Shown here: piece after piece, positions 425 to 62,845 of the stretch
Position numbering within the stretch: position 1 is the first letter of the stretch
Layout: the number at the start of each line of letters is the position of its first letter
Assembly: GCA_016748015.1 (NCBI GenBank)
Contig: JAAOMT010000128.1
Location: forward strand, 317,538-381,537
DNA from: Geosiphon pyriformis uo1
Taxonomy: Eukaryota; Fungi; Glomeromycota
Direction of reading: 5' to 3'
DNA length: 64,000 nt
The notes under the pieces: generated by a model
The model's database searches: none
What the model saw: the letters and a program-made list of their open reading frames with translations, nothing else
Told to the model about the DNA's origin: nothing
Made by a program: the position numbers and the translations under genes

Positions 425-1300
425 TGTTATGGTTTAAGAATTTAGCAAAAAGAATCATAAAAATAATACAAACTATTCAATCATAATATAGCACAGTAAT
501 AATCTTAGAAAAGTAATGATTAACATAGTAGCAAACACTATCTTGCAATAGTAGCAAGCACCAGTTCATAATAGCAGTTAACACCAACTGGTGATAGCAG
601 CAAACACCAGATTGAAATATCAAAAAGAAAGTATTACAATGTGTTTTCTCGTAGAACTACAAACATGTATATATACAGTAGTTTTAATATTGGGAAAGAA
701 TCAATCAAGTAATAAAAATCATAACTTATTAAGCAATAGATCCAATTTTATCCAACAAACTCCACTTTAAATCATATTTTCAAATTAAATATTCCAAGAA
801 ACCTTTAAATCAAAAAAAAATGAAAAAGAATATTTAAAACTGAATTATCACAACCCAAAGTATTAAGAAACTTACTTGTATTATTTATTGAATAAAACTA
901 TCATTCATCAACTGAATCTCTTGGAAGAATAATCCTTGATCAAGATTATTCACGTTATTACTAATTGATAAAAGCTTTATTGTAAGAATTAGAAAAAGTG
1001 CTAAAGACCATTAACATTTTGTGTTTCTAGATTAGAGAAACACATCAGGCAATTGCAAGGATAGTTTCAGAAAAGATCTCAGACAGTGGGTAGATTTCAG
1101 TTCAGCCTTTGAGAAGGAGTACATAAACATACACAACAATCAAGAATTGAAGAATAACTTACATTACAACATTAAAAAGAAAGCCTTCAGTATAACAGTG
1201 ACATTATCACACAAATAGAATTGAGAAACTCATGAAAGACTGATTGCAATTAAAACGAGATATCAGCAATTAAATATAACAAGAAAACCATTCCATAACA
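425..1300 (+). repeat. Element A 5' LTR (876 bp)
   Basis: Near-identical to 9178-10054. TATATATA at about 668; short ATAGCAGCAAACACCA-type repeats at about 525-610. Confidence 0.97.
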
Positions 1301-1302
1301 TT

Positions 1303-1318
1303 TGGTGAACCCTACGAG
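1303..1318 (+). promoter_or_regulatory. Primer-binding site of A (TGGTGAACCCTACGAG), possibly tRNA-Trp
   Basis: Begins with TGG 2 nt after the LTR. The complement ...CTCGTAGGGTTCACCA resembles eukaryotic tRNA-Trp 3' ends; tRNA identity is recalled, not searched. Confidence 0.75.
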
Positions 1319-1382
1319 AAAAGAAAATCAAAAAGGAAATAATAATTAGCAATAATTCATTGCTAAAAAGGAAGAGACAAAA

Positions 1383-4300
1383 GTGGTGACAAAAACCTCT
1401 AATCTTACTGTTCTTGAATTCTGCCATGCTATTTACACACAAAATCAAAGTGATCTTGGATTACCAGAAGAGTGTTGTCCAGCAGAATCTGCCCTCACTT
1501 ATTATATCAACGCCAGAATAAATTATCATATAAGAAAGGAAGAAAAACCACATGATGCAAAACTTGGATTGTATAGAGAATTATCACAATACACTACAAA
1601 AGAAGTAGCAGTAATAGCCGCAACTATTGTCAAAATTCATCGAGAAATTGAGCAATATGCCAACAAAAATTTTCTAATATCCACAGGAAACACTAGGGAA
1701 CACGCCAACAAAACCAAAGAAAATTTAGAAACTAATCAGGAAAGTAACCAGCAAAAACTAGGAACACCAGCTTAAACACCAAAGAAAACTGTCACTCAAT
1801 CAATAAAAAAACAACGTATTTATTTACTAGAAGATAAATCATACCATTTTTTACCAGAAAATAAGATACAAATTCTATTAGGAGCTGCATCATCATCAAC
1901 ATCAACTCCACAAATGCCAAAAACTCCTAGTTATACTGATAAAATTAAACAACGTAACTGGGGAGACATACCAATTACAGAAGGATATTCATCACTATTC
2001 CAAAACTCTTTTTTTCAGCCAAAATTTAGAATGGGGTTTGAAAACCGTGAAGAAAAGTCTAAATTGGAATCCAAAAAAGAGACCAGCAAAAAAACAATCA
2101 CAAGACCAGTCACTAGAACAAGCAGCCAGTCCAGAAACCAAGAAACTTGTGATCAAGAAGAAGAACTGAATATAAGGGAAGCCACCTTTAGGAACACTTA
2201 AGGAAATATCATCCCACCTCTTCTTAGACCAATAAGCCCACCAGCAGAAAATGGCAACGAAATGACCACATCATACATTACAAGACTAACAGATTTCTCA
2301 GGAGAAAAAAAAAAACCGGACGTGCACACATAGCTCAGAGAAGCACAAAAAGCCATCCAGGCAAATAACTAGAACAACCAAAGAGCAATTCAAACATTAC
2401 CTTTCTTCCTGAAAGGCACAGCCAACTCGTGGTATCAAAGCCTGGAAACAAAACCCACAAGCTTCACCAAATTTAAAAATGCACTCCTGGAGTATTTTAG
2501 CGACCCAAATGCCATAATCCAACTACAGAACAAATTCAATACTATCAAGCAAAATAGCAGTGAAACTGTCACCCAATACCTTGCTCGATTTAATTGAATT
2601 CGTTGTCAGATTGAAGCAATTGAACAAAAATATTACACTGATCCTCAGGTTTTAAATCAGTTTATTAGAGAATTAAAAAGCAGCATTTTAGGAAGAGTAC
2701 ACCCTGTCCACCCTAATTCCTTACCAGAAACCATTATGCTTGCCAGAGCCCTTGAATCGGCTGAGAAAAAAGCTAACCATAGTCAAATGGTTAACATGGT
2801 AATAGAGGAAAATAAGACAGAAACATTAGAGAAAAGAGTAACGCAATTAGGGGAGGAACTCTCTAAGAAAATAGAAAGTTACCTCATCCCAGATCCGAGA
2901 AGAAATACATACCAACCACCCCAAAAACGCAGCCAGGAAGTCAGCGACAGTTGAAATAATTGCTCGTCATGCCAGGAATTCAGAACAAAAATGCATGCCT
3001 GCCATTTTTGCAAATGCATAGGACATTTGATTAGTCAATGTCGAACACGAATGATGCAGAAAGCACGTGAAAATAATTACTACATGCCACCCCAAATGCC
3101 CAGAAACTAGTACATGCCAATACCACGCCAATATCCCACCACATATCAAAATCAAGGAGCTTATCAGCAACAGTCCATGATAGCCAACCCAAATTGGCAT
3201 CCCAAGGCCTGAAATCAGCCTATGTGGAACCAGAATGTGTTGGTCCAGAGGAATCCAAACCACGCCAAAACCAATCAGCAAACCAATCCAAACTACCAAA
3301 ATTATCAACAAACTTATCTTAATATACCAGAAAATCTGATTATCAGAAATAATGATGGTAGAAACATAAACAGAACCAAGAATTCCTCCAACAAATTAAG
3401 CCAAACAATACCACCAGCAGTTGCCACCAAAGATAGCAGCCTCGCAGCTATTTTTTTTTTTGAATTAAAAGAAAACAAGGCTATGTTCAATGGAGCAGCA
3501 TTGGACAAAAAGTGCCCAATCACTGCTATGTATACGAAAGCCACTGTAAACAATACTCCAATCAAATTTATTTTAGACAGCGGATCCGCTGGAAGCATCG
3601 TAATGCTTCAACTAGTAAACCAACTGGGTTTCAAAGTTGATCATGCCACGACATCCCAAATCATAACAGCTGATGGAAGTACAAAGCTGCCTCATGGCAA
3701 AATCGACTCATTTCCTTTCGAAATTAACAGCATAGTAATACCTACAAAAGTATTAGTAATGGATGCTACACAATATCAAGCATTAGTAGAGAATGACTGG
3801 CTAACAAAAGCCAATGCCACCTTAGACTGGACCACCCAAGAGCTTCTAATCAATTATAATTGCCACCAGGCCAAAATTCCAGCCACCTGTGGCCACTTCC
3901 AAAAACCCAGCACCAACCAAAGACCTACCTTCGAATTTAAGGAAAATCCAACACTACCAGCCATTGAAACCTATCAGCTCTCTTGAGTTGATAACCAAAA
4001 AACAAGACTACCAGTCATACCAATGTGGACCAGCGAAGAAAGATCCGAATGGAACCAGGTAAGTTTATGAAAAAACCACCAGCAATACAGACCAAAACTA
4101 GAATGCTCAGTTTGTAAGAAGAAACTCTCGTCTATGACTGCGTGCAGCACACTAAATAAAGACCCAAGAAACCCCACCCACTACTATTGTAACCATTGTA
4201 ACAATGAAAAATACGGTTACCCAGAAAGACACGAAAAATAGAATGAGGAACTGTGCCTCACTTGTGGAGAACCGTTACCAAAAGGATGTGACTGGAACAA

Positions 4301-7085
4301 CATACCAGACAGAGGAGGAATGTGTGACACAACTTGCCAATACACAATCCTTATCTGTGACTGGGTAAAAGGAGGAATGCCATTCGAAGCAGCATTCAAC
4401 AGAGTGTTAAAAAGACTATAGCACTACCCACATGACGAGGACGAGTTGTACAACACCGCACAAGCCAAAGTAAGAGAAGGAACCGCCAAAGAAATACGAT
4501 GTTGAAAAGAGTCAGCTAAAGTAGCCAACAAAGTCGCCAGTTACAACATGTTCGACCCAGTAGACGAATTTCAGAACTACTACCAACAACTATGCCCCAC
4601 TTGACAAGAGCAAGAACAATACCTCGCCCAAATCAACACTTACTTCTGCAAAAACTGTCTTATCCCATGCCAAAATCAGTGTTGTGAAGAGTGTCAAGAC
4701 GAAAGGGGCTTAGAAAGAAAAATGGAAATTGAGAATCAGCAGTCTCAAAATCAATCAATAAATCAACAAGACTCATCTGACAGTCACAAGTCAGAAAAAT
4801 TTGTAGCTTATACCGACCTAGAACAGATGACTGACATCCGATATTTTGACAACGGGCACTTAGGAATAATACCCAAAAGAGCCTATCTAACCGATGCTGG
4901 ATTCGATCTACGTTATCTAGAAGACCAATCCACAATGTTACCATCCAAGAGCATCATCAAAATTGACCTAAAAACAGTAGTTGAAATTCCGCTAGGAATA
5001 ATGGTTCAAATAGCATCATGATCAAGCCTTGCAAAAAAAAGAATAAGCATTCAAGGAGGAGTAATTGATTCTGGATACACTGGAAATTTGCTACAAAACA
5101 ATTCAGAAAAGCCTTATACCATTGAATCTAAGGAAAAAATTGCACAAGCAATTTTCCTACCATTGGTAAAAATTGGGAAATTTGTGCCAGTAGAAAATCA
5201 TGAGGAATTGTCACAAACAACGAGAGAAACTTTTGGTTTCGGATTGACAGGAAAAGGAATTGAAGCGAATTTCGCTAAAACAATAGAGGAAAAAGGCAAA
5301 GTAATTAAAAATGAACAGCCCATTATGCTCCTACCATATGAAAAATCAGAAATAAGAATAAAAAGGACAATTAAAGAAAAAGACCTAATATTTGAGCCCT
5401 ACCCAGAAATCTGCCAACAGTTTCTTATAAGACTTACTAACTTTTTTATTCCAGCTGATAAAGCTCAATGGATAAAAATTTCTATTGCAAACACCACAGA
5501 AGAACCCGTCTATATTCCGGAAGATACCATCATTGGATACCTTGAAATGGAGCTAGAAAACATGTCAACACTACAAGAAATTCTAAATTTCTCAGAAATT
5601 GCCCTCTACTGTGAACTCACTTCAATAAATTGGCAACAACTGTTAGAATGCTATCAATTTACGCCAGAAGAATTGGCCAAATTAAACATTGGAACAATGG
5701 ATCCTGACCAACAGTAACAATTAAAAGCATTAATTTTAAAATACTCTGATATATTTTCATGAAATGGCAAATTTGGAAGAACCAACTTGGTTCAACACCA
5801 AATTCCCACTGGAGACATCAGATCTAAAAAACAATGCGCTTACTGTATCCCACCAATGGAGCATAATTTTATCAGAGAAGAAGTCCAAAGCATGTTGGAA
5901 AAAAGAATAATACAACCATCAATGAGCCCATGGTCCTCACCAGTTGTTTTAGTAAGGAAAAAGAACAGAAAAATTAGATTTTGTGTTGACTATCACAAAC
6001 TAAACAGCAAAACAACCAAAGACTCATACCCAATACCATTAATTGATGAAATCTTCGACATTTTTGGAGAAGCAAAATGGTTTTCTACACTGGACTTGAC
6101 CAGTGGGTACTGGCAAGTGGAAATGGACCCAAAGGACAGACATAAAACAGCATTCACAACACAAAATGGCAATTATGAGTTCAATGTAATGCCATTTGGA
6201 TTAACAAACACTCCCACAACATTTCAAAGACTAATGGATGTAATTTACTCCAGAATCCTGTGGCAATCCATTGTTGTCTACTTGGATGATACAAATGTTT
6301 TCTCGTCAAAATTCATGGATCATTTCCAATATTTACAACAAGTTTTTGAGAAATTGAGACATGCTGGACTTAAACTAAATCTAGAAAAATGTTTTTTTGG
6401 GAAAAATGAGCTAGCATTTTTAGGACACATAGTTGGAAAAGATGGAATAAAACCAGATCCATCAAAAATAGACAAAGTGAAAAATTTTCCAGTACCTTGA
6501 AATGTTTCAGAAGTTAGAAGCTTTTTAGGACTTGCATCTTACTACCGCCACTTTGTAGAAAACTTTTCAAACATCGCCAAATCTCTTAATTATCTATTAT
6601 CCAAAAATGTGAAGTTTGAATGGACTGAAGCACAACAAAAAGCTTTTGAGTACCTTAGACGAAAGCTCATTGAATCACCAATAATGATCTATCCAAATTT
6701 CAACAAGAAATTCATTTTGGCCACAGATGTCTCTGAAACTGGACTTGGAGCCATTCTGTCACAAAAAGATAATAATAAAAGAGAATGTGTAATTGCTTAT
6801 GCCAGCAGAAGTCTCAGTACGATAGAACAAAACTACGCAGCACATAAACTTGAATGCTTAGCAGTAGTCTGGAGTTGTGTTCACTTTGACACATATTTAT
6901 AGTACCAACCCTTTGAGATTATGACAGATTATAGAGGTCTGGTCTGGTTAAATAACAAGAAAGCACTAAAAGAAAAATACGTCAGATGGTCACAAATATT
7001 AGCACCATACAATTATATTATCAAATACAAAGAAGGTACCAAAAATGCTAATGCTAACTGTTTGTCAAGAATAAGACACACATAA
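1383..7085 (+). pseudogene. gag-pol: A ORF1 polyprotein: N-domain, capsid, CCHC, protease, Cys-rich region, dUTPase, dUTPase-like domain, RT, RNase H; many nonsense codons
   Basis: Fragments 1383, 1914, 2736, 3222, 4722, 5088, 5787 and 6609 all lie in one frame. Motifs: CHFCKCIGHLISQC, LDSGS, AGFDL/GVIDSGYTG/KIAQAIF, RFCVDY, MPFGL, YLDD, TDVS, ECLAVVW. The true start codon is uncertain. Confidence 0.93.
4860..5255 (+). pseudogene. dut: dUTPase domain in element A
   Basis: Motifs DAGFDL, IAS*SSLA (likely CGA>TGA), GVIDSGYTG, KIAQ and RETFGFGLTG match dUTPase motifs I-V. Confidence 0.93.
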
Positions 7086-7114
7086 AAATCACCAACCCAC
7101 CCGCCACAACAACA

Positions 7115-8411
7115 ATGAACAACCACCTTTATAAAAACCTTAGCCAATACTTGGAAACACTACAAATAGATGAAGAAATGCCAGTAAAAAAGCTAATTAA
7201 GCTCCAAAAATTAGCAAAACCCTATTTCATCCAAAATCACATACTTTATTACCGGAATCAACAAAATCCAGATAATCCATTAAGAGTTATAACCACGGAT
7301 GAAAAAGAAACTATCTTATTTAACATGCACTCAGATATTCATTCAGGCCACTTTGGAAAAACAGCAACCATCCAACGTGCAACTAGCTGTTACTATTGGC
7401 CAAAAATAAGTTCAGATATAATCCAATACATAAGAAATTGTGACCCATGCCAACAAAGAAAAGGAGCAAAAACAACGGAATTATTAAGACCAATAAAAGT
7501 TAGACAGCCATTTGACAGAATCAGAATTGATTTAGTTGGACCCTTACCAATAACAACAAGAAACAACTGTTATATTGCAGTAGCTATGAACTATCTCACC
7601 AAATGGCCAGAAGCTAGAGCTATTAAAACAGCTGATGCTATTTCCATAGCTCAATTCGTACATGAAGACTTAATTTGCTGACATGGATATTCACAAGAAT
7701 TGCTATCAGATTAAGGCACACACTTTGTAAACAGCACCTTAAAAGAACTTAGCCAAAAATTTGGAATCAAATGACTACTGTCATCACCATACCACCCTCA
7801 AACAAATGGATTAGTTGAAAGATTTAATCACACATTATGCAAATCACTGGCGAAAATTAGTAACAAACATGAAAAAGAATAGGATTTGTTCATACCAGCA
7901 GTACTACTAGTATATAGAACAGTAAAACAAGATACTACACAATTCACACCATTTGAACTAGTTTATGGAAGAAAAGCCACATTACCAGTTGAACTTACTA
8001 TCCCAACTTATCCAAGTAACACTATCACGGAAGCAACATTCCAGGAAACACTACTTAGAAGAACATACGAATTAATAAGAACTTTAGAAAACAAAAGAAA
8101 AAAAGCAGCACAAAATATTGAACAATCACAAGAACAACAAAAAGTGAGACATGATAACCAGTTACCAAATAATATAATTAGCTACAAAATTGGAGANNNN
8201 NNNNNNNNNNNNNNNNGCATACAAGCTAAGACTAGATGATAAAATATTAAGAAAAGCAGCACATGGTAACCGGCTGAAATTTTATTACAGTAAACCAGTA
8301 ATAACAACAAAAACACCCAGAATTGGAACACAATTACCTTTAATTCTACCAGAACAAATTCCACGAGATTTAGAACCAATAGTTTTAATTGAACATTATT
8401 CAAAAAGATAA
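7115..8411 (+). pseudogene. int: A integrase, separate ORF with its own ATG; contains an assembly gap
   Basis: HHCC (H-x6-H...CDPC), IDLVGP, YHPQTNGLVERFN, TPFELVYGR. Different frame from RNase H, which stops at 7083-7085. Confidence 0.92.
8197..8216. other. Assembly gap (20 N) in the integrase C-terminal domain
   Basis: Run of N. Comparison with the integrases of B and C suggests about 100 nt (the KWDGPF segment) are missing. Confidence 0.95.
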
Positions 8412-8495
8412 TTAATCTTAGATCACAGCAAAAATGATTTAACAACCATAAAAACGCATGCAAAAGATTCCAAAATAGCAGTCAAAATTAAAACA

Positions 8496-9164
8496 ATGAT
8501 ACTTATTCCAGAAAACATCAACAATATAACTCAACAATTAGTTGAAAGCTTACAACAATTAAAATCCGATCTGGAAATCACAGTTAATAGCTCCAAGATA
8601 ACATACATAAAAAGAACAATAGAAAATCCAAAAACAAGAAAAGAACATAATTTTGAACCATATAATATTGCCAAATATAACAACAAATTTATCAGCAAAG
8701 TTATTGAAAAATTAGAGATAGCATTGGGCAATACATTAATAATGGAAGAAATAGAAATAAGTGAATTAACACCAGACACATTTAGCAACTTGAAAACAAA
8801 ATTTCCAATTAATTACTATTATTATCAACTAGGAAAGCACTTAAACATACAAACATTATACTTAAAAGACTTAACTAGAGTGTTTAACAAAACAACTATC
8901 CAACTATTAGAACCTTTTATTGGAAAAACCAACACTACATTTTATTCAAAAACAGTTTACAGAATTTTCAAAGCATTTGAAAACTGTCACAAATTATTGT
9001 TGGACCCAACCATAAACATAATAACAACCAACAGTATTAGATGACTTACCAATTCGCAATTTCAAGAATTACAACAACAAATTAATAACACAGTATTGAA
9101 TCACTATAGTAACTTAAAATTTAATGAAGAAATTAACTTCGATTTCGACGGAGCTCAATCTTGA
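8496..9164 (+). pseudogene. A ORF3, unknown protein of about 222 aa (one internal TGA at 9042)
   Basis: Homologous to the ORFs at the same position in B, C, E and H. Ends FDFDGAQS* overlapping the PPT. Confidence 0.85.
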
Positions 9165-9177
9165 AAGGAGAGGATAA
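9163..9177 (+). promoter_or_regulatory. Polypurine tract of A
   Basis: GAAAGGAGAGGATAA immediately before the 3' LTR. Confidence 0.9.
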
Positions 9178-10054
9178 TGTTACAGTTTAAGAATTTAGCA
9201 AAAAGAATCATAAAAATAATACAAACTATTCAATCATAATATAGCACAGTAATAATCTTAGAAAAGTAATGATTAACATAGTAGCAAACACTATCTTGCA
9301 ATAGTAGCAAGCACCAGTTCATAATAGCAGTTAACACCAACTGGTGATAGCAGCAAACACCAGATTGAAATATCAAAAAGAAAGTATTACAATGTGTTTT
9401 CTCGTAGAACTACAAACATGTATATATACAGTAGTTTTAATATTGGGAAAAAAAACAATCAAGTAATAAAAATCATAACTTATCAAGCAATAGATCCAAT
9501 TTTATCCAACAAACTCCACTTTAAATCATATTTTCAAATTAAATATTCCAAGAAACCTTTAAATCAAAAAAAAATGAAAAAGAATATTTAAAACTGAATT
9601 ATTATAACTCAAAGTATTAAGAAACTTACTTGTATTATTTATTGAATGAAACTATCATTCATCAACTGAATCTCTTGGAAGAATAATCCTTGATCAAGAT
9701 TATTCACGTTATTACTAATTGATAAAAGCTTTATTGTAAGAATTAGAAAAAGTGCTAAAGACCATTAACATTTTGTGTTTCTAGATTAGAGAAACATATT
9801 AGGCAATTGCAAGAATAGCCTCAGAGAAGACCCCAAACAGTGGGTAGATTTCAGTTCAGCCTTTGAGAAGGAGTACATAAACACACACAACAATCAGGAA
9901 TTGAAGAATAACTTACATCGCAACATTAAAAAGAAAGCCTTTAGTATAACAGTGACATTATCACACAAATAGAATTGAGGAACTCACGAAAGACTAATTG
10001 CAATTAAAACGAGATATCAGCAATTAAATATAACAAGAAAACCATTCCATAACA
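9178..10054 (+). repeat. Element A 3' LTR
   Basis: Direct repeat of 425-1300, followed by TSD CTGC. Confidence 0.97.
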
Positions 10055-11921: not shown

Positions 11922-14900
11922 CTAAGCACCTATATAAACAGAGATCTTACTCTCTATACCTGAAAAAACAAACAAGACTTACGGAACCTGAAACCAACAC
12001 CAATCGCCTTAGCAACACCCAGCAGCCAGGTTATACCAGATGACAGCCTTAAAGAAAGCCCAGAAATTGGGACAGGAGCAGACTTATTGCACAGAATAGG
12101 CCCATTTTTTTCCATGAATGCATGGTGCTTGGCATGAACCAACCAAATGTCTTCCCAAAAAGCCAAGCTGAACTCACGCACAAAGACCACAATGTTCTGA
12201 CTTGCTATCCTGGAATCCTTGAAGACAGAAACAGACTTACGAAACCAATTCTTGAAAACAAAACCCTTGTACAGAGCAGTACTAACTGAAACATTAAACA
12301 CACAAGTGGACAACAGCTGTGAGACACCTGAGGAAGAATGAGCCAGACCAGAGTGCACATTCCAAACTGCCACATAAGCATCCAACAACTGAGCATGACC
12401 ATCAGCATCAAATGGATAAGAAAAAACATGGTCTGAGACCTCGACATCCCCACAGAACAAACACATCACACTAGGGTAATGCTTATCATAAAGCCACTTA
12501 TACATGGTAACAGGGAGCCGATGGTGCAATGTTTTTATAAAGTAAGTCCGGAAACTAGCCGTCTACTTGCTAGTGAAGCCAGCAGCCATGTGAAAATTCA
12601 GATGCCAAACCAGCGATGACCTAAACCAATCAATATTTGTATGCAGACTACCTGCCACCACCCCAGTACCACAACTGATTTTCTAATGCACACAATGAAC
12701 AGACCAAAAAACATCTCAAACAAAATGCCTAGAATTACCAAAAATGGTTTCACCACCACCCCTAAGATAGCGTTTGTTAACAGAATAAGACAGATGCCAA
12801 CCAAAGAGAGCTGCAGTTCTGGCCAACTTATCAGCCCATTCATTGTCTGAAACCCTTGAGTGTTTTTTGATCTTACACCAATTAACTCTTAAATTCTTAT
12901 GACAAATAATATTCACAATATGATGGTGTTCAATCCAACACTGATTTCTAAAATCCAGACAAACCAATTTTATCTTCAACTTGCAAGCATCCAAAGCAGT
13001 CTGACTGTTCGAGAACAAGTCAATTGAGTGAGAAAAAGGGATGCATTTGAGCGCCAGAGCAATGGTCTTCAGTTCCATCAAGATAGAAAACATCAAACCA
13101 GATACTCCTACACCCAAACCCATACCAATGTTCTCAAAGAAAACAGCAGCTCCAGCTTTCATATCGACTGTCCCTAAATCACTTAGAGATCTATCTATAT
13201 AAATGGAAAGATAACCAACATTGGAATCAAACAAACTGGCACCAATGATGCCAAACTCATGAGACCAAAGAACATCCAAAGAGGCACAACCAGCCAAAAG
13301 TGTGGAACAGACAGGAAGAGAAGACACACCATCAAGAAAATGAATGGACAGCTCAAACCAAGCAGGAACCAGACCATGTGGGTCCAACCGCTTCCATCAT
13401 TTGAAAGTCTTCCATTCGAAAACAGCCCCATTTTAGTCTTGCAGCTGATCCACAAAAGCAATCCCATAATGCCAAAATGAAAAGACACTTTTGACATAAT
13501 TTGATTTACCAAGAACAAAAGACATAGAGGTTCCACTCTGCTGACAAAAAGCACTAACCAGAGAGCCACCCAATAACAAATCACACCCAGAGAAAATATG
13601 CATCATACCTGCCAGAAAATTATTAAGAGGATTGATTTTTACACGGACCGGACACTGCAAAGAATGTAGTGGATGCCAGCAGAGGACCTACAGATCATGC
13701 AACCGGTAAGAAAATAGACACCCCAAAATCCCAACAGAGTTTGCGAAAGAAACGACCAAAGCCAATTTACTCTCAGCCTGAACCTGTTCAAAAGTCTTCA
13801 AACCATACAGAGAGGGATGATGAATCGCATTATTGGGGAAATCATGCAGCAAACCAGACTTAGATCTTAAGCTCCTATGAATCAAAGTGTCTCACTTTCT
13901 ATAAGCACTAATAAGAATGTAACTGAACTGTGTTCTATATCCAATAATAGGAAAGAGGACTGCCGAAACCAAATATGAAAACTGCTTATCAAACACTGCC
14001 TTTTTTAGTATCAAATTAGAAAAGAACTGGACATCAAAATGTGCCTTAGCCAAGCTAGACTTTGAAAGACTCTCAGTTGACAAATAGATCTCCAAATAGC
14101 AATGCAATTCCTCCTTCTTGGCAATAAAAATAGGTAACCCGCTAATTAACAAAAAGAAAGCCATACCATCACAATTGATGGGGATAGCAACAGTCTTATC
14201 ATTATTAATTGAGATGTCATTGATATCAAAAAATTCACTAGCAATATTGAGAATGTGCTATGTAGCACTTCGACTGCTGCCAAACCATATAGTATCATCA
14301 ACAAAGACACCCACTGCGAAAAATGAAGATACACCAGCCCAAGACTCAGTATGACCACATCCGGAAATAAAATGAGAATTCAATCTGTAACCACACCCAT
14401 CTGACTGCCTCTTAACTTCACACAAAAGAGGATCATAAAAGATGCACCAAAGGAGTGGTGAGAACACCTTCCTTTGGTCCAAGTCATTATGCACTTTATA
14501 CTCATCTGTCAAACCAAAATTTGTCATAACCCTGTTGACGCAACCACCATGGATGCTGCCAAAAAACCTAATGAACCTGCTGCACATGTTTATCCTAACC
14601 AAACTGTTCTGAAGGTGTTTCCATCCAACAGAATCATAAGCTTTCCACATGTCCTGCAATACCAACCAGAGCTCACGATTCTTCTTCAAAGCATCCTTAA
14701 TAACTGAACCAATGGCAAAAATGGGAGACTGTGTCATCGTGCCCTTCAAAACCAAAAAATTGTCCCCACGCAGAACATCAAAAGTACTACAAGCCAATGA
14801 GATTCTATCTGAAAGAATCTTGGAGAGAATCTGGTGGGCAGTCTCAATCAAGGCAATAGGTCAAGTGTTTGTAAGAACTCCTTCTCACTCATATGGCTTA

Positions 14901-16869: not shown

Positions 16870-17752
16870 TGTTACAGGTGATTATTTCTGCTGTTGAATT
16901 AAATAACAAACCCGTAACTTGGTGCTCAAAAGCTATTTCTGTTGAGGCTATTCTGCAGGTGCTGTATCTGAAGGTTTTAATGGATCTGAAGGTTTTGGTT
17001 AAGTCTTTTGTATAATAGACAGAAATTTAATAATGTCGATAATAGAGATATTTTCCAAGAGTTTTCCCAATTTCTTTTTCAGCATGGTGGCCAGATTTAG
17101 TCTGGCAGTTGTGCCTTTCTAGTAAGCTATCCGATAATATATAAAAATCCTACCCGTATTTCTGGATCTTTTACCAGACTATTCTTGATGTCAATAACTC
17201 AGCACTTAATCATTTATCAATTAGTATATAACAACAAATCAAAATAAAATAAAGAAAAAGAAATAAAAGAAAATAAAGAAAGCAAAGAAATAAGCCAAGA
17301 TGATTTGCAGATTAGTATCCCATCAATAGCCGTGATCAAGAGCTATTGTTCCAGTGTGGTCAAATATCAATTACTATCAACATAAAGGGTTGATAGTGGG
17401 AAGTGGATGGAGATATAAAATAATTATTTATTAGATGATTGCATTTTTAGGCTAAGGATTTTGTGGTATCGATTCTGTCTTTTCTGTTTCTAATACTACT
17501 GCTATATATACATAATTGGAATTCCTCAATTCCTTGATTCTTCACAATAGGAATCCTGGAATTTCTGGAATTCTGCGATTCCTTTGAGAGGAATCCTGGA
17601 ATTCTGGAATCCTGCAATTCCTCATTGGGAATCCTGAAATTCTTGGAATCCTGCAATTCCTGAGAGGAATCCTGGAATTCCATATTTATTACGCTTACTT
17701 CTGATTGGCTAATAACTATGCTAATATATTTCCTATATTTCTATGAGTAATA
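16870..17752 (-). repeat. Element C 3' LTR with GGAATCCT/GGAATTCC tandem array (about 17515-17680)
   Basis: Direct repeat of 26167-27049. Confidence 0.96.
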
Positions 17753-17765
17753 TTATTCCCTCCTT

Positions 17766-18395
17766 TTAATATTGAGCTCCATCAAAATCTAACTCATGTA
17801 ATTCCCCCTCTTGAAGTATTTCCTGGATTTTGTTTTCGAGAATTACTTGTGTTATTTGGGTCTGTAATTCTTCAAATTGAGCATTGATGATTTTTCCCAA
17901 TTGATTACTGGTAACCCTATCCATTGCTTTATTGAGCAATATTTCTGGTTTATCTTGAAATGCTGTGTGTATTTGATATATGGCTCGGGCTTGTGTGGAT
18001 AAGTTGTTCTTTCCCACAAAATGTTCTAATTGTTGTAGTATTCTTTTGTCAAATAATCACTTTGTTTTATCTGTATATAGATTCTGGATATTTATGTGTT
18101 GTCCCAAGTAAAAATAACAATAGTTTCGTGAAAATTGTTATATCCACCAATTCCAAGTTTCTTTAGTCAACTCTTGATATAGTAACTTTTTTGTCGATTC
18201 TTTTATTGCTAATTTTACTTTTGCTATAATTTTGTCCACAGTATTTTCAGTTTTCTTCTGTATTCTGAGTTGCAATGTCTTTCTAGTATCTTGATATCAA
18301 ATGGTTTGTTGATTGATTGTAATCTCTATTTCCTGGTGTTGGATTAATTAAAAGAGTTGTTGTGCTAGTAAGTGAATGTTGTCTGTAATTTCCAT
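17766..18395 (-). pseudogene. C ORF3 (about 209 aa, in-frame stops only)
   Basis: MEITDNIHLLAQQLF...YFYLGQHINIQNLY...FVGKNNL...QFEELQ...DFDGAQY* aligns with A ORF3. Confidence 0.85.
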
Positions 18396-18449
18396 TTTTC
18401 TGATATTTTCTGTCACATCTATCATGTCTTTATATATTCTTTTGATGGA

Positions 18450-19832
18450 TCAATTTAACATATTATTGTTGATAGTAATGATTGGTTCCAGATCTCGTGA
18501 AATCTCATCTGGTTGGACTAGTATTCTTTGTACTCCTAATTGTGGAATATTACTGGTAGATGATAGTGTAATATTGTAATATGGTTTTAGTTGATCTCCA
18601 TGTGCTGCTTTGGTTAAAATTTTGTTATCCAATCTTAATTTGTAAGCTCCATTTTCTAGAATTTCTTCTATGTAAAATGGTCCATCCCATTTGGGGTCAA
18701 ATTTTCCACTCCATTGTTTTTCTGCTTTGGTACGATGTAGTAATACTTTGTCTCCGATCTTGAATTCAACTGGTTTGTCTGATAGTTGACTATCGTGTCT
18801 TTCTTTTTGTGTTTCTTGTGACTTTTGGATATTATCAGCTGCTCTTCTTTGTTTGTTTTCCAATGTTTTCATTAAGTCATATGTTCTTTTCAGCAATGTT
18901 TCTTGAAAATTTTCCTCTGTTATTGGTTCAGCTGGATATGTATTAATTTCTCTCTCTACTAGTAATATTGCTATTCTTTCATATACTAATTCAAATAGTG
19001 TTGCTTGTGTAGTATCTTGTTTCATTGTCTGATAAGCAAATAGTACTGATGGTATGAACAAATCCCAATTGTTCTGGTTTTCTTGGCTGAGCTTGGCTAT
19101 TGCTTCACACAATGTTCTGTTGAATCTTTCTACTAATCCATTGGTTTGTGGATGGTATGGTGATGATAGTGGTCTCTTAATTCCGAATCTTTGGCTCAAT
19201 TCTGTTAATGTTCTGTTCACAAAATGAGTTCCTTGGTCTGATAATAATTCTTTTGGACATCCATGTCAACAAATCAAATCCTGATGAATGAATTCGGCAA
19301 TGGATTCTGCATCTGCTCTTTGAATTGCTTTCGCCTCTGGCCATTTAGTGAGATAGTCCATTACTACTGCTATGTATTTGTTTACTCTGCTGGTGATTAT
19401 TAATGGTCCCACTAAATCAATTCCCATACAGTCAAATGGTTGTCCCACTTTGATTGGTCTTAATGATTCACTGGGTCTTGTTCCTTCTCTTCACTGACAA
19501 GCATCACAATTTTGAACATATTGAATGATGTCTGGGTACATTGATGGCCAATAGTATCTTTTTCTAGTCCTTTCCATGGTTGCTTCTTTGTGAAAATGTC
19601 CTGCTGTTGGATTTGAATGCATATTGAATAATATTGTCTCTTTTTCTGGCTCCATAATTACTCTGGTTGGTTAATCTAGATCCCTTCTATTTTTTCGATA
19701 AAGTATATTTTGGTAAGTGATAAAATATTTTGATTGTTGTTTGATACTTCTTCATTCTGTATGAAATAAATTCTCCTTGAACTGTTGAGTGTTTAGATAA
19801 TGTTGCAATTGTTAATATTTTTGTATGTTCAT
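18450..19832 (-). pseudogene. int: C integrase, downstream of the RNase H stop
   Basis: HHCC, GIDLVGP, YHPQTNGLVERFN, KWDGPF, RDLEPII. ATG at 19832; RNase H TAA at 19896-19898. Confidence 0.92.
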
Positions 19833-19895
19833 CTTTTGTTGTATTTTTCCATTGGTATTGTTCTAGTTTTATTATATTTTTGGGTTGAAATGTTC

Positions 19896-22800
19896 TTAGA
19901 TTTGTCTTATTCGCGATAAACCATCAGCATTTTCGTTGTTTTTTTCCTTTTTGTAATGTATAGTATAATTGTATGGTGTGAGTGCCCTTTTCTATCTTGA
20001 CTGTCTTCTATCTCCAAATTCTTGTTTTTGAAGTGATATTAATCCCTTGTGATCTGTGTATACTTCAAACTTCTGGCTCAAGTATTCTTTCCATTTCATG
20101 ACGGCCCAGTATATTGCTAAGTGTTCTTGTTCCGGTGTTCTATAGTTCTTTTCAGCTGGTGTTAAACCTCTGCTGGCATATGCTACTGGATGTTCTCTGC
20201 CGTTCAGTTTTCTCTAAGATAATACTGCTCCCAATGCTTGGCTGGATGCATCAGTGGTGATAATGAATGGTTTGCTGTAATCTGGATAGATCAGTATTAG
20301 AGCTTGGATGAGCTTTTTCCTCAGAATATCAAAAGCTTTTTGTTGACTTTCTGTCCATTCATATTTCACATTTTTGTTTTGTAGTTGATTAAGTGGCTGC
20401 GCTATCTTGGATAAAATGACAATAGTAGCTGGCAAATTCCAAGAATGATTTCAGTTCTGTTATATTGGTCGGCACTGAAAAGTTCTTTACTATCTCTATT
20501 TTCTCTGGATCTGTTTTGATGCCGTCTTTGCTGACTATGTGTCCCAAGAATTTGAGTTCCGTTTTGCCAAAGAAGCATTTTATTGCATTTAACTTTAGTC
20601 CTGCTCTTCTTAGTCTTTTGAACACTTGTTGAAGATAATGAAAATGATCATCAAACGTCTTTGAGAATACATTAGTGTCATCCAAATATACAACTACTGA
20701 TTTCCACAATAAGCCAGTATAAACGATTTCCATTAGCTGTTAGAAAGTTACTGGGGCATTGGTTAAGCCGAATGGCATCACTTCAAATTCGAAATTCTCT
20801 TCTCTAGTAGTAAATGCTGTCTTTTCTTTGTCAGCTAAATTCATGGCTACTTGCCAGTAACCACTGTCCAAATCTAATGTAAAGAATCATTTGTTCCCAC
20901 CAAACGCATCAAATAATTCCTGTATTTGTGGAGTTAGATAACTGTCTCCATGAGTTACACCATTGAGTTTCCTGTAGTCTACACAAAACCGGATTTTTCC
21001 ATTTTTCTTATAGACGAGTACTACTGGTGACAACTATGGGCTCATTGATAATTGAATTAGCCCGTTGTCAAGCATTCTGTTTATCTCTTGACGAATAATC
21101 TCGTGGCTGGCTGGTGGCACTCTGTATGCTCTTTGTTTGATTGGCATTGCATCTCCAGTTTTGATCTGATACTGAATGATGTCAGTTCAGCCAAATTCAT
21201 TTTCACTGGCAAAGATGTCATTAAAATTGTTGAGTAACATCTTGAGCTGCATACATTGGAGTGGATCTAAGTTTCCCATGTTCATTTGTTCCAATTGTTC
21301 TGATTGGAGCAAATTACATTCGTCTTGTCCATAGATTGTCTGTGATGTGATGTCAACATATTCACAAAGTTGTAAAAAGTCTGGAATGGAGTTTGGTGGT
21401 TGGTCTTCTATTTCTGTGGTTAGATATCTGATGGTGGTTCCTTCTGGTATGTTGATGACATTACCAGTGTTGTTGTAGATGGAAATTTTTATGCTGCTAT
21501 AGCTTTTGGCTAGTATGTGGAGATTGATCAACCCAATCTCTCCTGATTCACAAAGGGTTGCTTCTGCTTCAAAAATCTGTTCTTGCTCCTTTTTCTTTTT
21601 TTTTATTGCTAACATGTACTGGCTATATGGTGGAATGGAAATAGCTTGACCAGTTGAGATAATTTCTCCTTGGCCAACAATTTCTTCTTCTGCCATGTTA
21701 ACTGGTACATCTATTCTACCTGTGGATCCGAATCCTTGTATTCCTCTCACCATTATTTCTAATTCCTCCCTCTTTCTCACTGATACTAACTGAGCTATTC
21801 TAACCAGAGGCAGGAATATTGCCTGTGCTATCTTTTCATTGGGCTTTATTACATAGGCCTTTTCTGAGTCATTTTGTAGCATAGTGATAATATTTCCTAC
21901 ATATTTTGTATCAATTATTCCTCTTCTTATATTAATCTCTCTTTTCGCTAAACTACTCCTAGATGCTAATTGAACTATTGTTGTTGCCGAAATTTCTAAT
22001 GCTATTTTCAGATTAATGCAAGTGTGTGAATGCGGTTCTAATTTGATGGCATTTTTTTTCTGGATATCTCAGATCAAACTCTGCATTAGTATCATGCACA
22101 TGTTCTGGTATAATACCTTCCCCATTGTTACTATACTATTTCAACTCTTGTTCCTTGGAGAGATCTGATAGTGCAATGTATTGTTCATAGTTTACATCAG
22201 GTTTTGAATCTGAGTCTGAATCATTTTTGTCGTCATTGCCAATTTAAACAGAGCTTAAACCGTTGTTATTGTCATTATTGTCGGAATTTGAATTGTGATT
22301 GATCGGCGATTCTGATTCTGATGCGCAGCTGCTGATTGGTTTTTCTTCTTCAGGGATTGAGTAAATCATGCGTGGTGGTGGATTGTAAATGAGGTCACAC
22401 TTATTACAATACTGGACATCACAGGGAATTAGGCAGTGTTGACATAGTCGAGCATTTAACTGCTCTAACCGTTGTTTTTGTTCTTCCCTTGTGGATGCTA
22501 ATTCTTGGTAGTGTTCGTAGAATTGTTCTGGATCCAGGAGGTTTATGATGAGTTCTGCATCCCAGTCAAGCTCTAAAGGTTCTGGGGGGTTGTCTTTAAT
22601 CGTTTTTATTTCTTCTGGCATTGCCTCTTCGATTTTGGCAAGTGCTATTCACCAAATTTCATCATCGTCATGTAGACAACTGTCCAGTTACTGCACGGCT
22701 CTTCTCCAGGCTGTTTTTATTGGGGTTCTTTTCCTTACCCAGTCGCTTATTAGAATTGTGTATTAACACGATACGTCACATGTTCCTCTATATCCTGGAA

Positions 22801-26104: not shown

Positions 26105-26146
26105 TTTTGGTTTGGTGTTGTCAGTGCTGGTTTTCTGTAGGATTAT

Positions 26147-26164
26147 ACCTCACAGAGAGCACCA
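26147..26164 (-). promoter_or_regulatory. PBS of C (TGGTGCTCTCTGTGAGGT)
   Basis: 18-nt motif beginning TGG, 2 nt from the 5' LTR. Confidence 0.85.
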
Positions 26165-26166
26165 AA

Positions 26167-34014: not shown

Positions 34015-34751
34015 ATGGATCTTTCAGATCAAATTTTAAAATTATCTAAACAATTATTTAAAACAATTCAAAAATTGACATCTCAAATAGAAATAACAAT
34101 TGATAAAAAAGAGATACAGTACAAAGATAAGAGCAGGAGAGGGAAGGATGAGAGTTCAATTAGAACTAAACATTCCTTCCCCTACCCATCACCCAAAAGG
34201 CAATGTGGGAGAAAAAATTGCCTTTGGCGGAGGGGGGGGAAAAAGAAGGAGGCAAAGAACGAGAAAAAGGTTACAAAAGAAGATACTTGGTCCCCGAGCT
34301 TGAAGAAATAAAAAAAGCTTTAGCTCGTGGGACCAAACTCCCTGAAACAAGGGAGTGGACACCTGACAATGCCCAGGAATGGAAAGAAAGACTTCCTCCA
34401 GCTTATTGGTTCTACAAAATTGGAGAACAGCTTGACTTGAAAACACTATATGAAGACTTCAGCCAGAAAATGTTCAACAAAGAAGCAATACAACAAGTAG
34501 AAAAATTCATAGAAAAAAACAACCTGACCCTACATTACAAAGCAGCATACTGACTATACGCTGCCTTCTAACATTGCCCAAACGTACTACTGAATGGATC
34601 TATGAAAACCATAATGGTTAACAGCATAGGACGAATAACCAATCAACAGTTTGAAGACCTACAAAAGGCAATACTAAAGGCAACAATCGAACATTACACA
34701 AACGAAGCCACGATAACAAATACATATGGTTTCGCAGAAGCTCAATTTTAA
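34015..34751 (+). pseudogene. B ORF3 (frameshifted, probably near the G-run at about 34232)
   Basis: MDLSDQILKLSKQL...YWFYKIGEQL...FNKEAIQQVEKFIEKNNL...QFEDLQ...GFAEAQF*. Confidence 0.85.
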
Positions 34752-45072: not shown

Positions 45073-48000
45073 TGTTATAGGTGAATATTTAAGATGTTGG
45101 TACAAATAATAAACTTATAATTTGGTACTCAATAGCTAATTATGTTAGTAATATTTGAAAATTTTAGTAATCTAAAGATATTGGTTGAGTTTTTTATATA
45201 ATAAACAGAAATTCAATAATTGTTTTAGTACCCTTTCAGAAACTTATTCTGTAAATTTTTTTCTCAACTTGATAGCTGGTTTCTCTTAATAAGCTATTCT
45301 TAATTTCAGAGTTTCTATCTTTTTTTCTGGATTTTTTAGCAGTATTTCTTAATGTTAATAACTCTGCATATTAATTTTTTAATCAATTAGTAAACAACAA
45401 TAAAAATAAAAAAAATAAAAAAAAATAAAAAAATTAGTATTCTATTAATAGCCATAATTAAGAGTTATTGGTTCAATAGAGTTAAGTGTTGGATTCTATC
45501 AATATGAAGTGTTAATAGAGTGGAAATATTTTAACATTCTTTAATTAAATGACAATAATATAGATTCAAGTAATAATAAATATTTTATTGATATGTAATT
45601 TATTTCTGTTTCAAGTTATAGAAAACTATTTTTTAAAGGAAAAGATATTAGATAATTTAATTAATTATTGGTATCTATTTTGAAATCAATTTTTAATTGA
45701 ATTTTTTTTTTCTGCTTTTAATACTCTTATTATATATACATAATTAATATTATACAAGATTTCTTGAATTTCTTTAATTTTTTTAGTCAGGAATTCTAAA
45801 ATTTCTTTTTTTTACTATACCTATTTTTAATTGGCCAATTTATATCCTTATAAAATCCTTAAATTTTTTTGAGTAACATTATTTCCTTTTTTTTAATATT
45901 GAGCTCTATCAAAATCTTCTGAATTTTCTAATTCTTCTTCTTGAATTAACTCTTTAACTTTTTTTCAAGAATTACTTAAAAATTTTAATTTGTAATTTTT
46001 CAAATTAGGCATTAGTAATTCTTCTTAATTGATTAATAGTTACTATGTTCATTGTTGAATGAAGTAGTATTTCTGATCAGTCTTGAAATTCTGCTTGTAA
46101 CCAGTATATAACTTATGTTTGTGTAGATAAGTTGTTTTTTTTCACAAATTGTTTGAATTGGTGTAATATTGTTATATTAAACAATTATTTTGTTTTGTTA
46201 GTATATAAATTCTAAATATTAAGGTTTTGTCTCAAGTGGTAATAGCAAAAGTTTTTTAAAAATTGTTGTGTTCATTATTTTCAGTTTTTTTCTGTTAATT
46301 TTTTATATAGTATTGTTGTTTTTGATGTTTCTACTAATAATTTTACTTTTATTAATATAATATTTACTATATTTTTCAATTTTTTGTATATTTTGTATTG
46401 GTTTTTTGGCTTTTTTTTTCTATTTTTGTATTAAATAATTTGTTAATTGATTATAATTTCTATGTTTTGTTGTTGGTATTTAGATATTATTAGTAATTTT
46501 CATTTTTTTGTTTGCTTTTATCACATATATTAGTTCTTTATATATCTTTTTATTATATCTATTTTGACATGTTTGTGTTAATAATTATGATTGGTTCTAG
46601 ATTTCATAGAATTTTATCTGATTAGACTAATATTTATTGTACTTCCAGTTGTAAAATATTACTAATAAATGATAATGTTATATTGTAATATGGTTTTAAT
46701 TAATCTTCATATATTGTTTTAACTAAGATTTTGTTGTCTTATCTTAGTTTATAAGTTCTATTTTCTAGAATTTCTTCAATGTAAAATAGTTTGTTCCATT
46801 TGGAATCAAATTTTTTACTTCATTGTTTTTCTGCTTTGGTATAATACAAGAGTATTTTGTCTTCAATCCTAAATTCAACTGGTTTATCTGGTAATTGGTT
46901 ATTATGTTATTCTTTTTGTTTTTTTTGTAACTTTTGAATATTTTCAACTGTTTTTTGTTTTTTGTTTTCTAATGTTTTCATTAAGTCATATGTTTTTTTT
47001 AACAATGTTCTTTAAAAGTTGGTTTCTGTTATTGGTTTTATTAGATATGTATTAATATCTATCTCAACTATAATATTGATGTTTTATCATAAACAAGTTC
47101 AAATAGTATTACTTGTATAATATCTTGCTTTATTGTTTAATAAGCAAATAATACTAATAATATAAACAAATTTTATTCATTTTGGTTTTCTTAGTTGATC
47201 TTGGCTATTGTTTTATACAATGTTTTATTGAACTTTTTGACTAAGCCATTTGTTTATAGATGGTATGATGATGATAATAGTCTCTTGATTCCAAATTTTT
47301 AACTTAATTCTGTTAATGTTCTGTTTACAAAGTGAGTTTTTTGGTTTAATAATAATTTTTTTGTATATTCATGTCAACAAATTAAGTTTTGGTATATGAA
47401 TTTGGCTTCAGATTTTGTATCTGCTTTTTGAATTGCTTTTACTTTTGGTCATTTTGTAAAATAATCTATGGTTATTGCTATGTAATAATTGCTTTTACTT
47501 ATTATTATTAACAGTTTGACTAAGTTAATTCTAATTCAATCAAATAATTGTCCTACTTTAATTGGTTTTAGTGGTTTATTGGGTCTTGTTTTTTTTTTTT
47601 GACAAATATTATAATTTTGAACATATTAGATAATGTCTGAATACATAGATAGCCAATAGTATCTTTTTTTGGTTCTTTTCATAATTGCTTCTTTATAAAA
47701 ATATCCAGTTGTTGAATCTGAATATATGTTGAATAATATTGTTTTTTTTTTGGTTCTAATTACTCTAAGTAACTAATCTGAATATTTTCTGTTTTTCTGG
47801 TATAATATATTTTGATAAGTGATAAAATATTTTGCTTGTTGTTTTATGTTGTTTTGTTTTTTTTGAGATAAATTTTCCTTAAATTATTGAATATTAATAT
47901 AATATTAGAGTTGTTGATATTTTTGTGTGTTTATTTTTTATGTTATTTTTGAGTTAAAATGTTCTTAAATTTGTTTTATTTGCAACAAACCATTGGCATT

Positions 48001-60060: not shown

Positions 60061-62845
60061 AAAAAAAAGAATTAGTTCTCATCAATTGCTATAATCAAGA
60101 ATAATTGGTCCAATTTGTTAAAAGTTTGAAGCATTTATACTAATGGCATCTGTTCTAGAACAAAGATAAGAAATACTGATTTTAATTTCAATTAAAATTC
60201 ATAAGATTCGAGAACATGAATTGGTAAATTGGATTTTTTTGTTTTTAATAATTATTGTATTTTAGACTATGGATATATGATAAGTATAATACAAAGTAAA
60301 ATTGATTGCTAACTAACTGTTTTTTCAGCTTTTACAACTACTTGCTTTTATATATTCTTTTGGTTTTATAGGATTGCTTTTAATTGTTTTACTATTGCTA
60401 GCTATTGTTTTGTTATTGTTAACTATTGCTCACATTTGTCCTATGTTACCTTGAATTGTACTACGTTTTTTTTGTCACGTTTTTTTGTCACATTTTCTCA
60501 TAGCTTTTTGGTTTTTTCTACTTAGGTAACATTATCCCTTCCTTTTAAAATTGAGCTCCTGCAAAATCATCTATTTTAGCCAAGTTTGTGTTTTCTGTAA
60601 AAAACTTAAATGTTGCCCTTAGTATTGCTTTTTGTAGAACTTCAAATTGGGTGTTTGTTATCTATTCTATGTTGTTAACTGTGATATTTTCAGAGTTTTG
60701 TCTAGTAGTACTGTTAAACAGTATTTAAATGCTGAATATAGTCAGTATGTTGCTTTGTAGTATAGGTTTAAGTTGTTTCTTCCCACAAATTCTTCTACTT
60801 GTCTACAGGCTTTTTTGTTGATTGTTTAATGATTGAGATCTTTATATGGGCTATTTAATTCTAATTGTAACCCAATTTTAAATAGCCAATAGACAAGTAG
60901 AAGTTTCTTTTTTCATTTCTTTGTATTTTCAGGTGTCTATTCTCTTATTACTGACTCTGGTGTTTGCCTGTTCAGACTCTTCCTTATTTCCTCAATCCTT
61001 ATCCAACACAGTTCTATTTTTGTTACCTTCACCTTCTCCTTAACTCTGTTGAGTCCTATCCATATCATATCCCTTTTTCTTTTTTTTTTGTAGGAAGAAG
61101 TTTGCTTGTAAGAATAGGACAGCTTAGTTCTAATTGAACTTTTGTCCACCTCTTTCTTGCTCCTATTTCTGTATTATATCTCTTTTTTATCAATTGTAAT
61201 TTCTATTTGAGTGGAAGATTGTTGAATTGCATCAAACAGTTGTTTTGAAAGTTGTAGAATTTGATCTGAAAGATCCATGTTGAAAAGGTTCTATTGTTTT
61301 TTTATTGTTTTCTGGGTAATATATATACTTAAATTTCCCAATTTTAATTTGCTATGTGTTGTCTATGTTTTAATGACAATGATTGGTTTTAGATCTCGTG
61401 GTATATCTTCTGGTCTGATTAATGAAATTTGTGTTCTTAGTTGAGGTACTGATGACAATGACTGTTGTTTTGCATGATAAATTTTTAATTGATTCCCATG
61501 AGCTACTTTTTTTAAAATTCTGTCTTCTAATTGTAATTTGTAAGCTCTATTTCCTAAAGCTTTGTGTATGTGGAATAGGCCATTTTACTTTGGGTCAAAC
61601 TTTCTGCTTTATTGTTTCTTTGCTTTTGTATGATGTAATAGTACTTGGTCTCTAATCTTAAATTTCATTGGTTGTTTGGATAGGTGATTGTTATGTCTTT
61701 TTTTTTGTTATTCTTGAGCATTACTAATATTGTCAGCTGCTGTTTTATGATTGTTTTCTAATATTTCTATTAGTTGGTACATTTTTTGGCATAAGATAAC
61801 TTCAAAATTTTTTTCGTTAATAATTTCTGTTAAGTAGAATGCTATTTTTTGTTCAATAGGTAGTGTTGCTTTTTTTCTATAGACTAATTCAAATGGTGTA
61901 AACTGTGTCATATTTTGCTTTAATGTTTGATATGCAAAGAGTACAGAAGGTATAAATAAGTTCCATTCTTGTTCATTTTCATAACTTATTTTTGCTAATG
62001 CTTCATATAATGTTCTGTTAAACTATTCTACCAGTTCATTTGTTTGTGAGTGATATGGTGACAATAAAAGTCATTTTATACCAAATCATTAACACAATTC
62101 AGTTAATATAGTATTGACAAAATGCATTCCTTGGTCTGATAACAATTTTTTTGGGCATTCATGTCTGCATATTAGATTTTGGTGTATGAATTTGGCTACT
62201 GTTTTGGCATTAGCTACTTAGATTGCTCTGGCTTCTGGCCATTTTGTAAGGTAGTCTATGGCTACTGTAATGTAATAATTTCCTTTGAATGTAATCGGGA
62301 GAGAACCAACCAAATTTATTCCAATTCTATCAAATGGATTTCTAACTGAAATAGATTGAAGTGGTTCTATTATTCTGGCTTCTCCTTTTTACTGACATGA
62401 GTCACAATTGAGAACATACTCAAAGATATCCTTATACATCATAGGCCAATAGTATAGATTTGTTGTTCTTTTCAGAGTTATGTTTTTGTTGAAGTGTTTT
62501 GCAATTGGGTTGAAATGCATACTATATAATATAGTTTCTTTTTTACTGTCCTTAATCAATTGTTGTGGGGTGGTGTGGTTTTGTCATTCTTGACAATAGA
62601 ATTAGTCATTTTGAATAAAGTAATTTCGTGTTTGTTTCCATATGGTATTTTGTTTCTGTTGAGATAAAATCTTCTTAAAATGTAGTGTTGATAGGTACTG
62701 ATGTAATTACTAATAAGTAAGTGTATTCATGGATTCAAAATTAGATTTGTGGTATCCTCAACAAACTGTTAGCATTGGTGTTCTTGAATCTTTTTTTGTA
62801 ATGAACTTTGAGTGGGAATTGTTGCAAATAAGTATTCCATCTCAC
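59641..62845 (-). mobile_element. Element H: B-like Gypsy element (3' LTR 59641-60531, PPT, ORF3 about 60545-61278, IN about 61362-62730, end of RNase H)
   Basis: Collinear with B from 32450 onward; DDFAGAQF*; TAA at 62741-62743 then ATG at 62730. Confidence 0.9.

Follow-up and report, generated by a model that had tools for sequence, protein, structure and literature searches.

What is the third open reading frame (ORF) that lies between the integrase and the polypurine tract (PPT) of a group of Geosiphon pyriformis retrotransposons, and why is it kept? Five related long terminal repeat (LTR) elements, A–E, lie in the AT-rich stretch that raises this question (64,000 nucleotides; hereafter the window). 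In element A the frame, ORF3, occupies 8496..9164 on the plus strand and runs from ATG to TGA over 222 codons, interrupted once, by a TGA at codon 183. An earlier reading made from the letters alone (the sequence-only reading) had proposed that ORF3 encodes a non-Env accessory protein. We conclude that ORF3 is, almost certainly, a real coding gene under purifying selection.

All five elements carry the gene. A tblastn search located homologues in B–E, and each of the five window copies lies between integrase and PPT. The others are at 17766..18395 in B (minus strand; 209 codons, 4 stops), 34015..34751 in C (plus strand; 737 nt, 2 stops and a frameshift near 34200-34240), about 45894..46503 in D (minus strand; heavily decayed, with frameshifts and 10 stops in 165 aligned codons) and 60545..61278 in E (minus strand; 734 nt, 6 stops and a frameshift near 60685). 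The ORF of 210–245 residues that had been described for all five elements is thus present as a span, but none of the five copies is an intact open frame (1–10 stops; frameshifts in C, D and E). An uninterrupted 244-residue C-type ORF3 protein (P0014) is found elsewhere in the same species.

The reading frame is still visible in these copies. Alignment in the ORF frame scores 183–295 in 5/5 pairs tested; the next-best of 36 frame pairs scores 94–137, and shuffled sequences reach at most 72 (300 shuffles per pair). ORF3 of A has one in-frame stop, versus 22 and 25 in the other two sense frames, and stops are comparably rare in the reverse transcriptase (RT; 1 in 377) and integrase (4 in 359) of the same copy. 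A, B and C share 34–35% identity in ORF3 and align well above shuffles, as expected of the diverged yet alignable proteins that had been described. The shared motifs fared less uniformly. When six of them were tested as written (AF...LL alone was loosened), A has 6/6, TxNS[IL] is missing from B and from C, and the main piece of E and the aligned piece of D keep 2/6 and 0/6, respectively, with loosened forms present.

Selection was assessed from the ratio of nonsynonymous to synonymous change (dN/dS). For the window these are counting estimates from protein-guided alignments near saturation, and they include neutral decay after insertion. The ratio is below 1 in all ten window ORF3 pairs (0.30–0.60; bootstrap upper bounds 0.46–0.98), including C/E at 0.31 (0.19–0.46) and B/D at 0.30 (0.16–0.49); the integrases of the same elements give 0.16–0.33. 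The proposed selection is therefore borne out, and the value near 1 that had been named as its refutation was not found. Moreover, DNA-guided alignments have a significant third-position excess in 3/5 ORF3 comparisons (p 0.011–0.017) and in 0/4 LTR or spacer controls. Among nine metagenomic sister pairs picked by hand, all six diverged pairs have ratios of 0.05–0.19. Some observations count against purifying selection: the window ratios depend on those near-saturated alignments, the third-position excess is not significant for B/D (0.11) or for the 5' part of C/E (0.83), and the three close metagenomic pairs give 0.27–0.48 from few changes.

How far does ORF3 reach beyond this species? Protein database matches to the ORF3 queries (7, 18 and 5) were all labelled Geosiphon pyriformis, and one database protein is identical to ORF3 of A across 84% of the query. 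Many Geosiphon gene models consist of ORF3 fused with LTR-derived or other transposon sequence (P0002-P0007, P0015, P0035, P0038-P0042), and dozens of 'hypothetical' fungal gene models are explained as transposon pieces. Because scans with ORF3 itself gave no match outside Geosiphon, the integrase was used as the scan query. From 202 metagenomic integrase loci we took the best 80 (L001-L080; 41–51% identical). Most of these have a stand-alone integrase, and 27 ORFs behind it are mutually alignable. A profile built from 23 of the 27, whose loci are among the 80 scored, matches 36/80 loci, on the same strand as the integrase and downstream of it in all 36. Matches rise with the amount of sequence after the integrase, from 34/49 (at least 300 nt) to 23/27 (800 nt) and 18/20 (at least 1000 nt). 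Since the loci were picked by integrase, the data cannot exclude ORF3 elsewhere; the expectation that homologues always sit between integrase and PPT holds for 5/5 window copies and for likely relatives in many elements, but 'always' is more than such a sample can show.

When 1.84 billion representatives were searched, the same profile matched 493 clusters (50% identity) at E<=0.001. Ten clusters were looked up, chosen mostly by length, and four of them are named: Rhizophagus irregularis (a gene model that fuses integrase and ORF3), Gigaspora margarita, Glomus cerebriforme and Cetraspora pellucida. All four genera belong to Glomeromycotina. The family model is all-helical, without strands, at a predicted local distance difference test score (pLDDT) of 97.7. 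In an alignment of 148 sequences, basic residues occupy positions 46, 53, 77, 94 and 109 in 73–90%, aromatic residues are conserved at 61, 88, 96 and 99 and acidic residues at 11, 68 and 100, net charge is positive in 74%, and no Asp, Glu, His or Cys is invariant. Median identity is 26% for ORF3 versus 57% for integrase. This is likely a widespread and apparently undescribed family of small proteins of about 140 residues, predicted to be all-helical and encoded behind the stand-alone integrase in Glomeromycotina elements. The fold is possibly new, as the predicted shape matches no solved structure. No description of the lineage or the protein was found in the literature, with Repbase, GyDB, subscription papers and supplements outside the search; the accessible portions of PMC7928374 and bioRxiv 10.64898/2026.05.21.726589 hold nothing bearing on the ORF3 lineage.

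Is Geosiphon ORF3 a member of this family? We searched the six frames of the window with the 148-sequence profile, which excludes Geosiphon sequences. The region 8817..9119 of A (plus strand; helices 3–8 of the family model) comes out on top (E 3.6e-4), followed by ORF3 of C (8.5e-3), and the 23-sequence profile selects the same two regions. Profile–profile comparison scores 24.5; 40 block shuffles reach at most 21.5, and an unrelated alignment 19.5. A 224-residue ORF3 at locus L032 bridges the two groups, matching both at E about 6e-5; in a tree of window and metagenomic sequences only, where internal support is weak, the L032 integrase lies in the same broad region as those of the window. 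B, D and E are tied to the family through A and C. Taken with the identical position, these likenesses suggest that Geosiphon ORF3 is quite probably a long, diverged member of the 140-residue family.

Several observations weigh against membership. The Geosiphon match covers the C-terminal half only, at 14–16 bits, and would not be significant library-wide; the N-terminal half of the family (D-L, P-Y and the basic helix 2-3) is left unaligned by the profile, and the Geosiphon N-terminus is longer and different. B, D and E have no profile match of their own (E 0.026–0.043 for one sequence). A keeps 11/31 conserved columns and the other aligned proteins 3–5. A and B are nearly neutral (net charges +1 and -1), whereas the C and E types carry +20 and +21. 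Finally, the structural model of Geosiphon ORF3 is unusable (pLDDT 42) and lends no support to a shared fold with the family. Could Geosiphon ORF3 instead have been captured separately, for example as an RGS-like host fragment that resembles the family in helical pattern only? The weak, half-length matches would fit such an origin, as would RGS18, the top PDB sequence match of the Geosiphon profile (weak, E 0.33), and a Pfam RGS match to B at E 1.0; RGS is not among the fold matches listed. The shared position, the collinear motifs, the bridging L032 protein and the top rank in the window speak against capture, as does the lack of a host paralogue (none in 30 search rows, every one a Geosiphon gene model), and we regard it as improbable.

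Nor does ORF3 resemble an envelope protein. In the proteins of A, B and E and in the intact one of the C family, the highest 19-residue Kyte–Doolittle mean is 0.44–1.05. By hydropathy alone, a mean of 1.6 over 19 residues is attained by none of the four Geosiphon proteins and by 2/148 members of the family, and no signal peptide or membrane segment is seen in the ORF3 proteins. The four Geosiphon proteins have no furin-type Rx[KR]R site and contain 1–3 Cys, and there is no conserved Cys column in the 148-sequence alignment. From these sequence features, ORF3 is neither an Env nor a membrane fusogen, in agreement with the sequence-only reading; an Env or a transmembrane sORF2/FAST-like identity is ruled out by low hydropathy alone. 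A confident match to a characterised accessory or Env protein, the other outcome named as a refutation, did not emerge from Pfam, PHROGs, NCBIfam or PDB sequences and folds. The weak matches include uS13 (H2TH) by sequence (E 0.6) and, for the DUF3102/ParB-type helix-turn-helix, a DUF3102 protein by fold (rank 36, E 1.5, TM score 0.26). GDSL esterase and DEDDy exonuclease were considered and rejected, the family model having no strands and no invariant catalytic set; neither is matched among the Pfam families listed.

ORF3 is accessory rather than core in its lineage. Four loci (L022, L031, L053 and L059) form one clade of the integrase tree (support 1.0) without ORF3, and in them the stand-alone integrase leads straight to PPT and LTR.

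What, then, might ORF3 do? Our tentative answer is that it may be a soluble, non-essential helper that binds the nucleic acid of its element and protects it from host silencing. The sequence-only reading had named a silencing suppressor and an RNA or chromatin binder among its candidate roles. This reading draws on the conserved Arg/basic and aromatic residues and the lack of an invariant catalytic set, and on evolution that is fast yet selected, on dispensability and on transposon silencing in a related fungus: Rhizophagus has transposon-directed small RNAs, DNA methylation and expanded Argonautes, according to the accessible part of bioRxiv 10.1101/2021.03.30.436303. ORF3 would be made from the 3' end of the element, whether by re-initiation downstream of the integrase stop or by way of a subgenomic RNA, and would then bind element nucleic acid and shield it from silencing by small RNAs and methylation. 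Two points tell against this role. Fold searches found no known nucleic-acid-binding fold, and the near-neutral charge of A and B would weigh on nucleic-acid binding.

It is also possible, though rather unlikely, that ORF3 acts through protein contact, as an antagonist or recruiter of a host protein such as Argonaute, a methyltransferase or a chromatin factor. A small, soluble, fast-evolving and selected protein that one clade dispenses with would suit this, and charge differs widely among families, while the N-terminal extension is variable in Geosiphon and L032. However, no partner or motif is identified, and the conserved basic residues of the wider family suit nucleic acid at least equally. 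We think it unlikely that ORF3 is an in-particle adaptor that loads or escorts the separate integrase, or binds capsid. ORF3 does follow the stand-alone integrase in 18/20 loci with enough sequence, an ATG at the integrase stop (8/33 loci) would couple synthesis of the two, and their identities correlate (Spearman 0.48, n=28), for which kinship alone suffices. By contrast, ORF3 is conserved far less than integrase, and the ORF3-less clade keeps its separate integrase, which therefore works without ORF3; this argues against an obligate packaging adaptor and weakens the earlier suggestion of one. A helical core that is MIT-like and engages ESCRT-III, taking particles through membranes or into coenocytic hyphal nuclei, seems very improbable. 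An Env- or FAST-like fusogen, or a neutral leftover, is scarcely credible: ORF3 is in the env position, but it has neither signal peptide nor membrane segment and is under purifying selection.

The start codon (ATG) of ORF3 lies -8 to +5 nt from the integrase stop in 8/33 measurable loci, and stop and start overlap by 1, 4 or 8 nt in 5/33. In most other loci the spacer is longer, and in two it exceeds 1 kb; window copies have spacers of 54–84 nt, with an out-of-frame ATG inside 3/4. Tight stop–start coupling would suit only some members of the family, the window copies not among them; these copies and the loci with the longest spacers would need re-initiation over a greater distance, or else a subgenomic RNA. 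Runs X2 and X3, of library type not on record, gave contigs that span 8665-9419 and 8784-9104 unbroken and are uninformative on strand, start or level. The X2/X3 contigs also skip segments in 1408-5631 and 9554-9917 (family A); 8/14 of the skip joints shown are GT...AG on the minus strand and are absent from the DNA run X1. These skips likely reflect a multi-intron antisense transcript over gag, protease, dUTPase and LTR; in the window copy, stops interrupt every frame of its larger exons.

Downstream, every window ORF3 stop abuts the PPT, and in A the PPT (9163..9174, plus strand) shares bases with the stop codon. A short DNA motif before the PPT (window 9150-9177 and metagenomic loci) is retained with or without ORF3 and dictates the FDGAQ/AGA end of the peptide.

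Element A spans 425-10054 and C 15429-35861, both on the plus strand; B (16870-27047, minus strand) is nested in C, and D and E, on the minus strand, are both partial. The 5' LTR of A (425..1300, plus) is followed by a TGG-type primer binding site, and its 3' LTR (9178..10054, plus) has TG...CA ends; a perfect 4-bp target duplication flanks A and C. LTR pairs are 97% identical in A and 91% in both B and C. Since they differ (at 26/871, 80/881 and 97/1095 sites, respectively), nearly all by transitions, A, B and C are dead, decaying copies. The gag-pol frame of A (2199..7085, plus; 2199 is not a mapped start) ends at its own stop and encodes, by Pfam, a Ty3 capsid, zinc knuckle, protease, dUTPase, RT and RNase H; the dUTPase match (E 0.015) is under the Pfam cut-off. 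This dUTPase-like domain, at 4794-5200 in the protease/RT interval, is carried by A, B, C and D, and the intact metagenomic pol of L068 has no dUTPase match. The integrase ORF of A (7115..8411, plus; a short run of N inside) is stand-alone, starts at its own ATG 29 nt past the pol stop and has an SH3-like tail. In 5/5 elements pol stops just past RNase H and integrase is in a different frame, with its own ATG seen in A, B, C and E. Throughout the lineage (window 7083-7117; L001-L080), integrase forms an ORF of its own with an ATG start, and its junctions with pol include 4- and 8-nt overlaps and TAATG. Long minus-strand ORFs lie at 11954-14860 and 36327-38971, in GC-richer stretches within or next to elements.

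Other features accompany the metagenomic relatives. An additional 117-residue sense ORF precedes ORF3 across a 1-nt gap in L018:2855-3208 and L013:1671-2024, and a Cys-rich ORF follows integrase instead in L002:2119-2490. Antisense ORFs encoding charged coiled coils lie between integrase and ORF3 in L046:7089-7358 (-) and L077:2780-3346 (-), and likewise in L034, L038, L045, L070, L073 and L074; they are reminiscent of plant Tat/Ogre elements, which have antisense ORFs. In L003, L005, L007, L008, L047, L054, L055, L061 and L062, pol continues past RNase H into a long acidic tail with the conserved Cys/His motif CxxxCDxENHHxHxxCxxC, likely a metal-binding domain, which is missing from the window elements. 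Just 5' of the integrase ATG, many loci share the conserved non-coding motif TGCA..GTGAC..ACAGCC (for example L008:4479-4503 and L027:2288-2312); it is not in the window copies and might act in splicing, as an acceptor, or as a signal for re-initiation.

The wider interest lies in how retrotransposons persist. LTR elements make up 41.2% of the Geosiphon genome (PMC11952901, accessible part). With such a genome, silencing by small RNAs and methylation, intact copies and an ORF3-less clade, retrotransposon persistence is directly testable. The fullest scenario, which we think unlikely, is that an ancient Glomeromycotina-wide gag-pol/integrase/ORF3 lineage would encode a counter-defence protein of new all-helical fold, and that its long Geosiphon form would have helped LTR expansion to about 41% of the genome.

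How does this lineage compare with known systems? It shares with Ty3/Gypsy (Metaviridae) elements two TG...CA LTRs, a primer binding site, a PPT, a short target duplication, a Ty3-type capsid, the order protease-RT-RNase H-integrase (by Pfam; also in the intact relative L068) and the SH3-like integrase tail. Described members typically make integrase as part of Pol. Unlike them, neither A–E nor the related metagenomic loci have integrase within Pol: it has its own ATG and is followed by a third ORF without a known family. Because of this separate integrase we class the element as a Ty3/Gypsy-like variant. In proposed role only, ORF3 would be comparable to VANC of plant VANDAL elements, a transposon-encoded anti-silencing factor, and to viral silencing suppressors, as a small, fast-evolving, element-encoded helper; no sequence or structure similarity to these was found. 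As for expression, the overlaps seen in some loci fit the UAAUG, AUGA and AUGnnUGA signals of termination–reinitiation in SART1, hypovirus and influenza B BM2 (accessible text of PMC5972666), from which the spaced window copies differ. The env of errantiviruses and retroviruses occupies the position of ORF3, and sORF2/FAST-like proteins of the insect MDG1 group (bioRxiv 10.1101/2025.03.14.642691) are likewise accessory to a Ty3/Gypsy element; unlike both, ORF3 lacks a transmembrane helix, a signal peptide and a myristoylation-type start and is predicted to be soluble.

Extra ORF3s are known from insect, rotifer and plant LTR elements. What is added here is a family of 493 clusters with a confident model and no known match, tied to a three-gene lineage of arbuscular mycorrhizal-type fungi. 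The closest parallels are in bdelloid rotifers, for which we draw on the accessible portion of PMC5408684. Bdelloid lineages include some with a dUTPase between protease and RT, as here, and their non-Env ORF3s comprise a GDSL esterase, a DEDDy exonuclease, coiled-coil proteins and small transmembrane ORFs. All of those can be recognised as enzymes, coiled coils or membrane proteins and typically come from spliced messages, whereas the present family has no Pfam match and no membrane segment, is globular and all-helical in its model and, in some of its members, abuts the upstream stop. Common to both is a family-specific ORF between pol and the 3' LTR that is gained or lost by branch.
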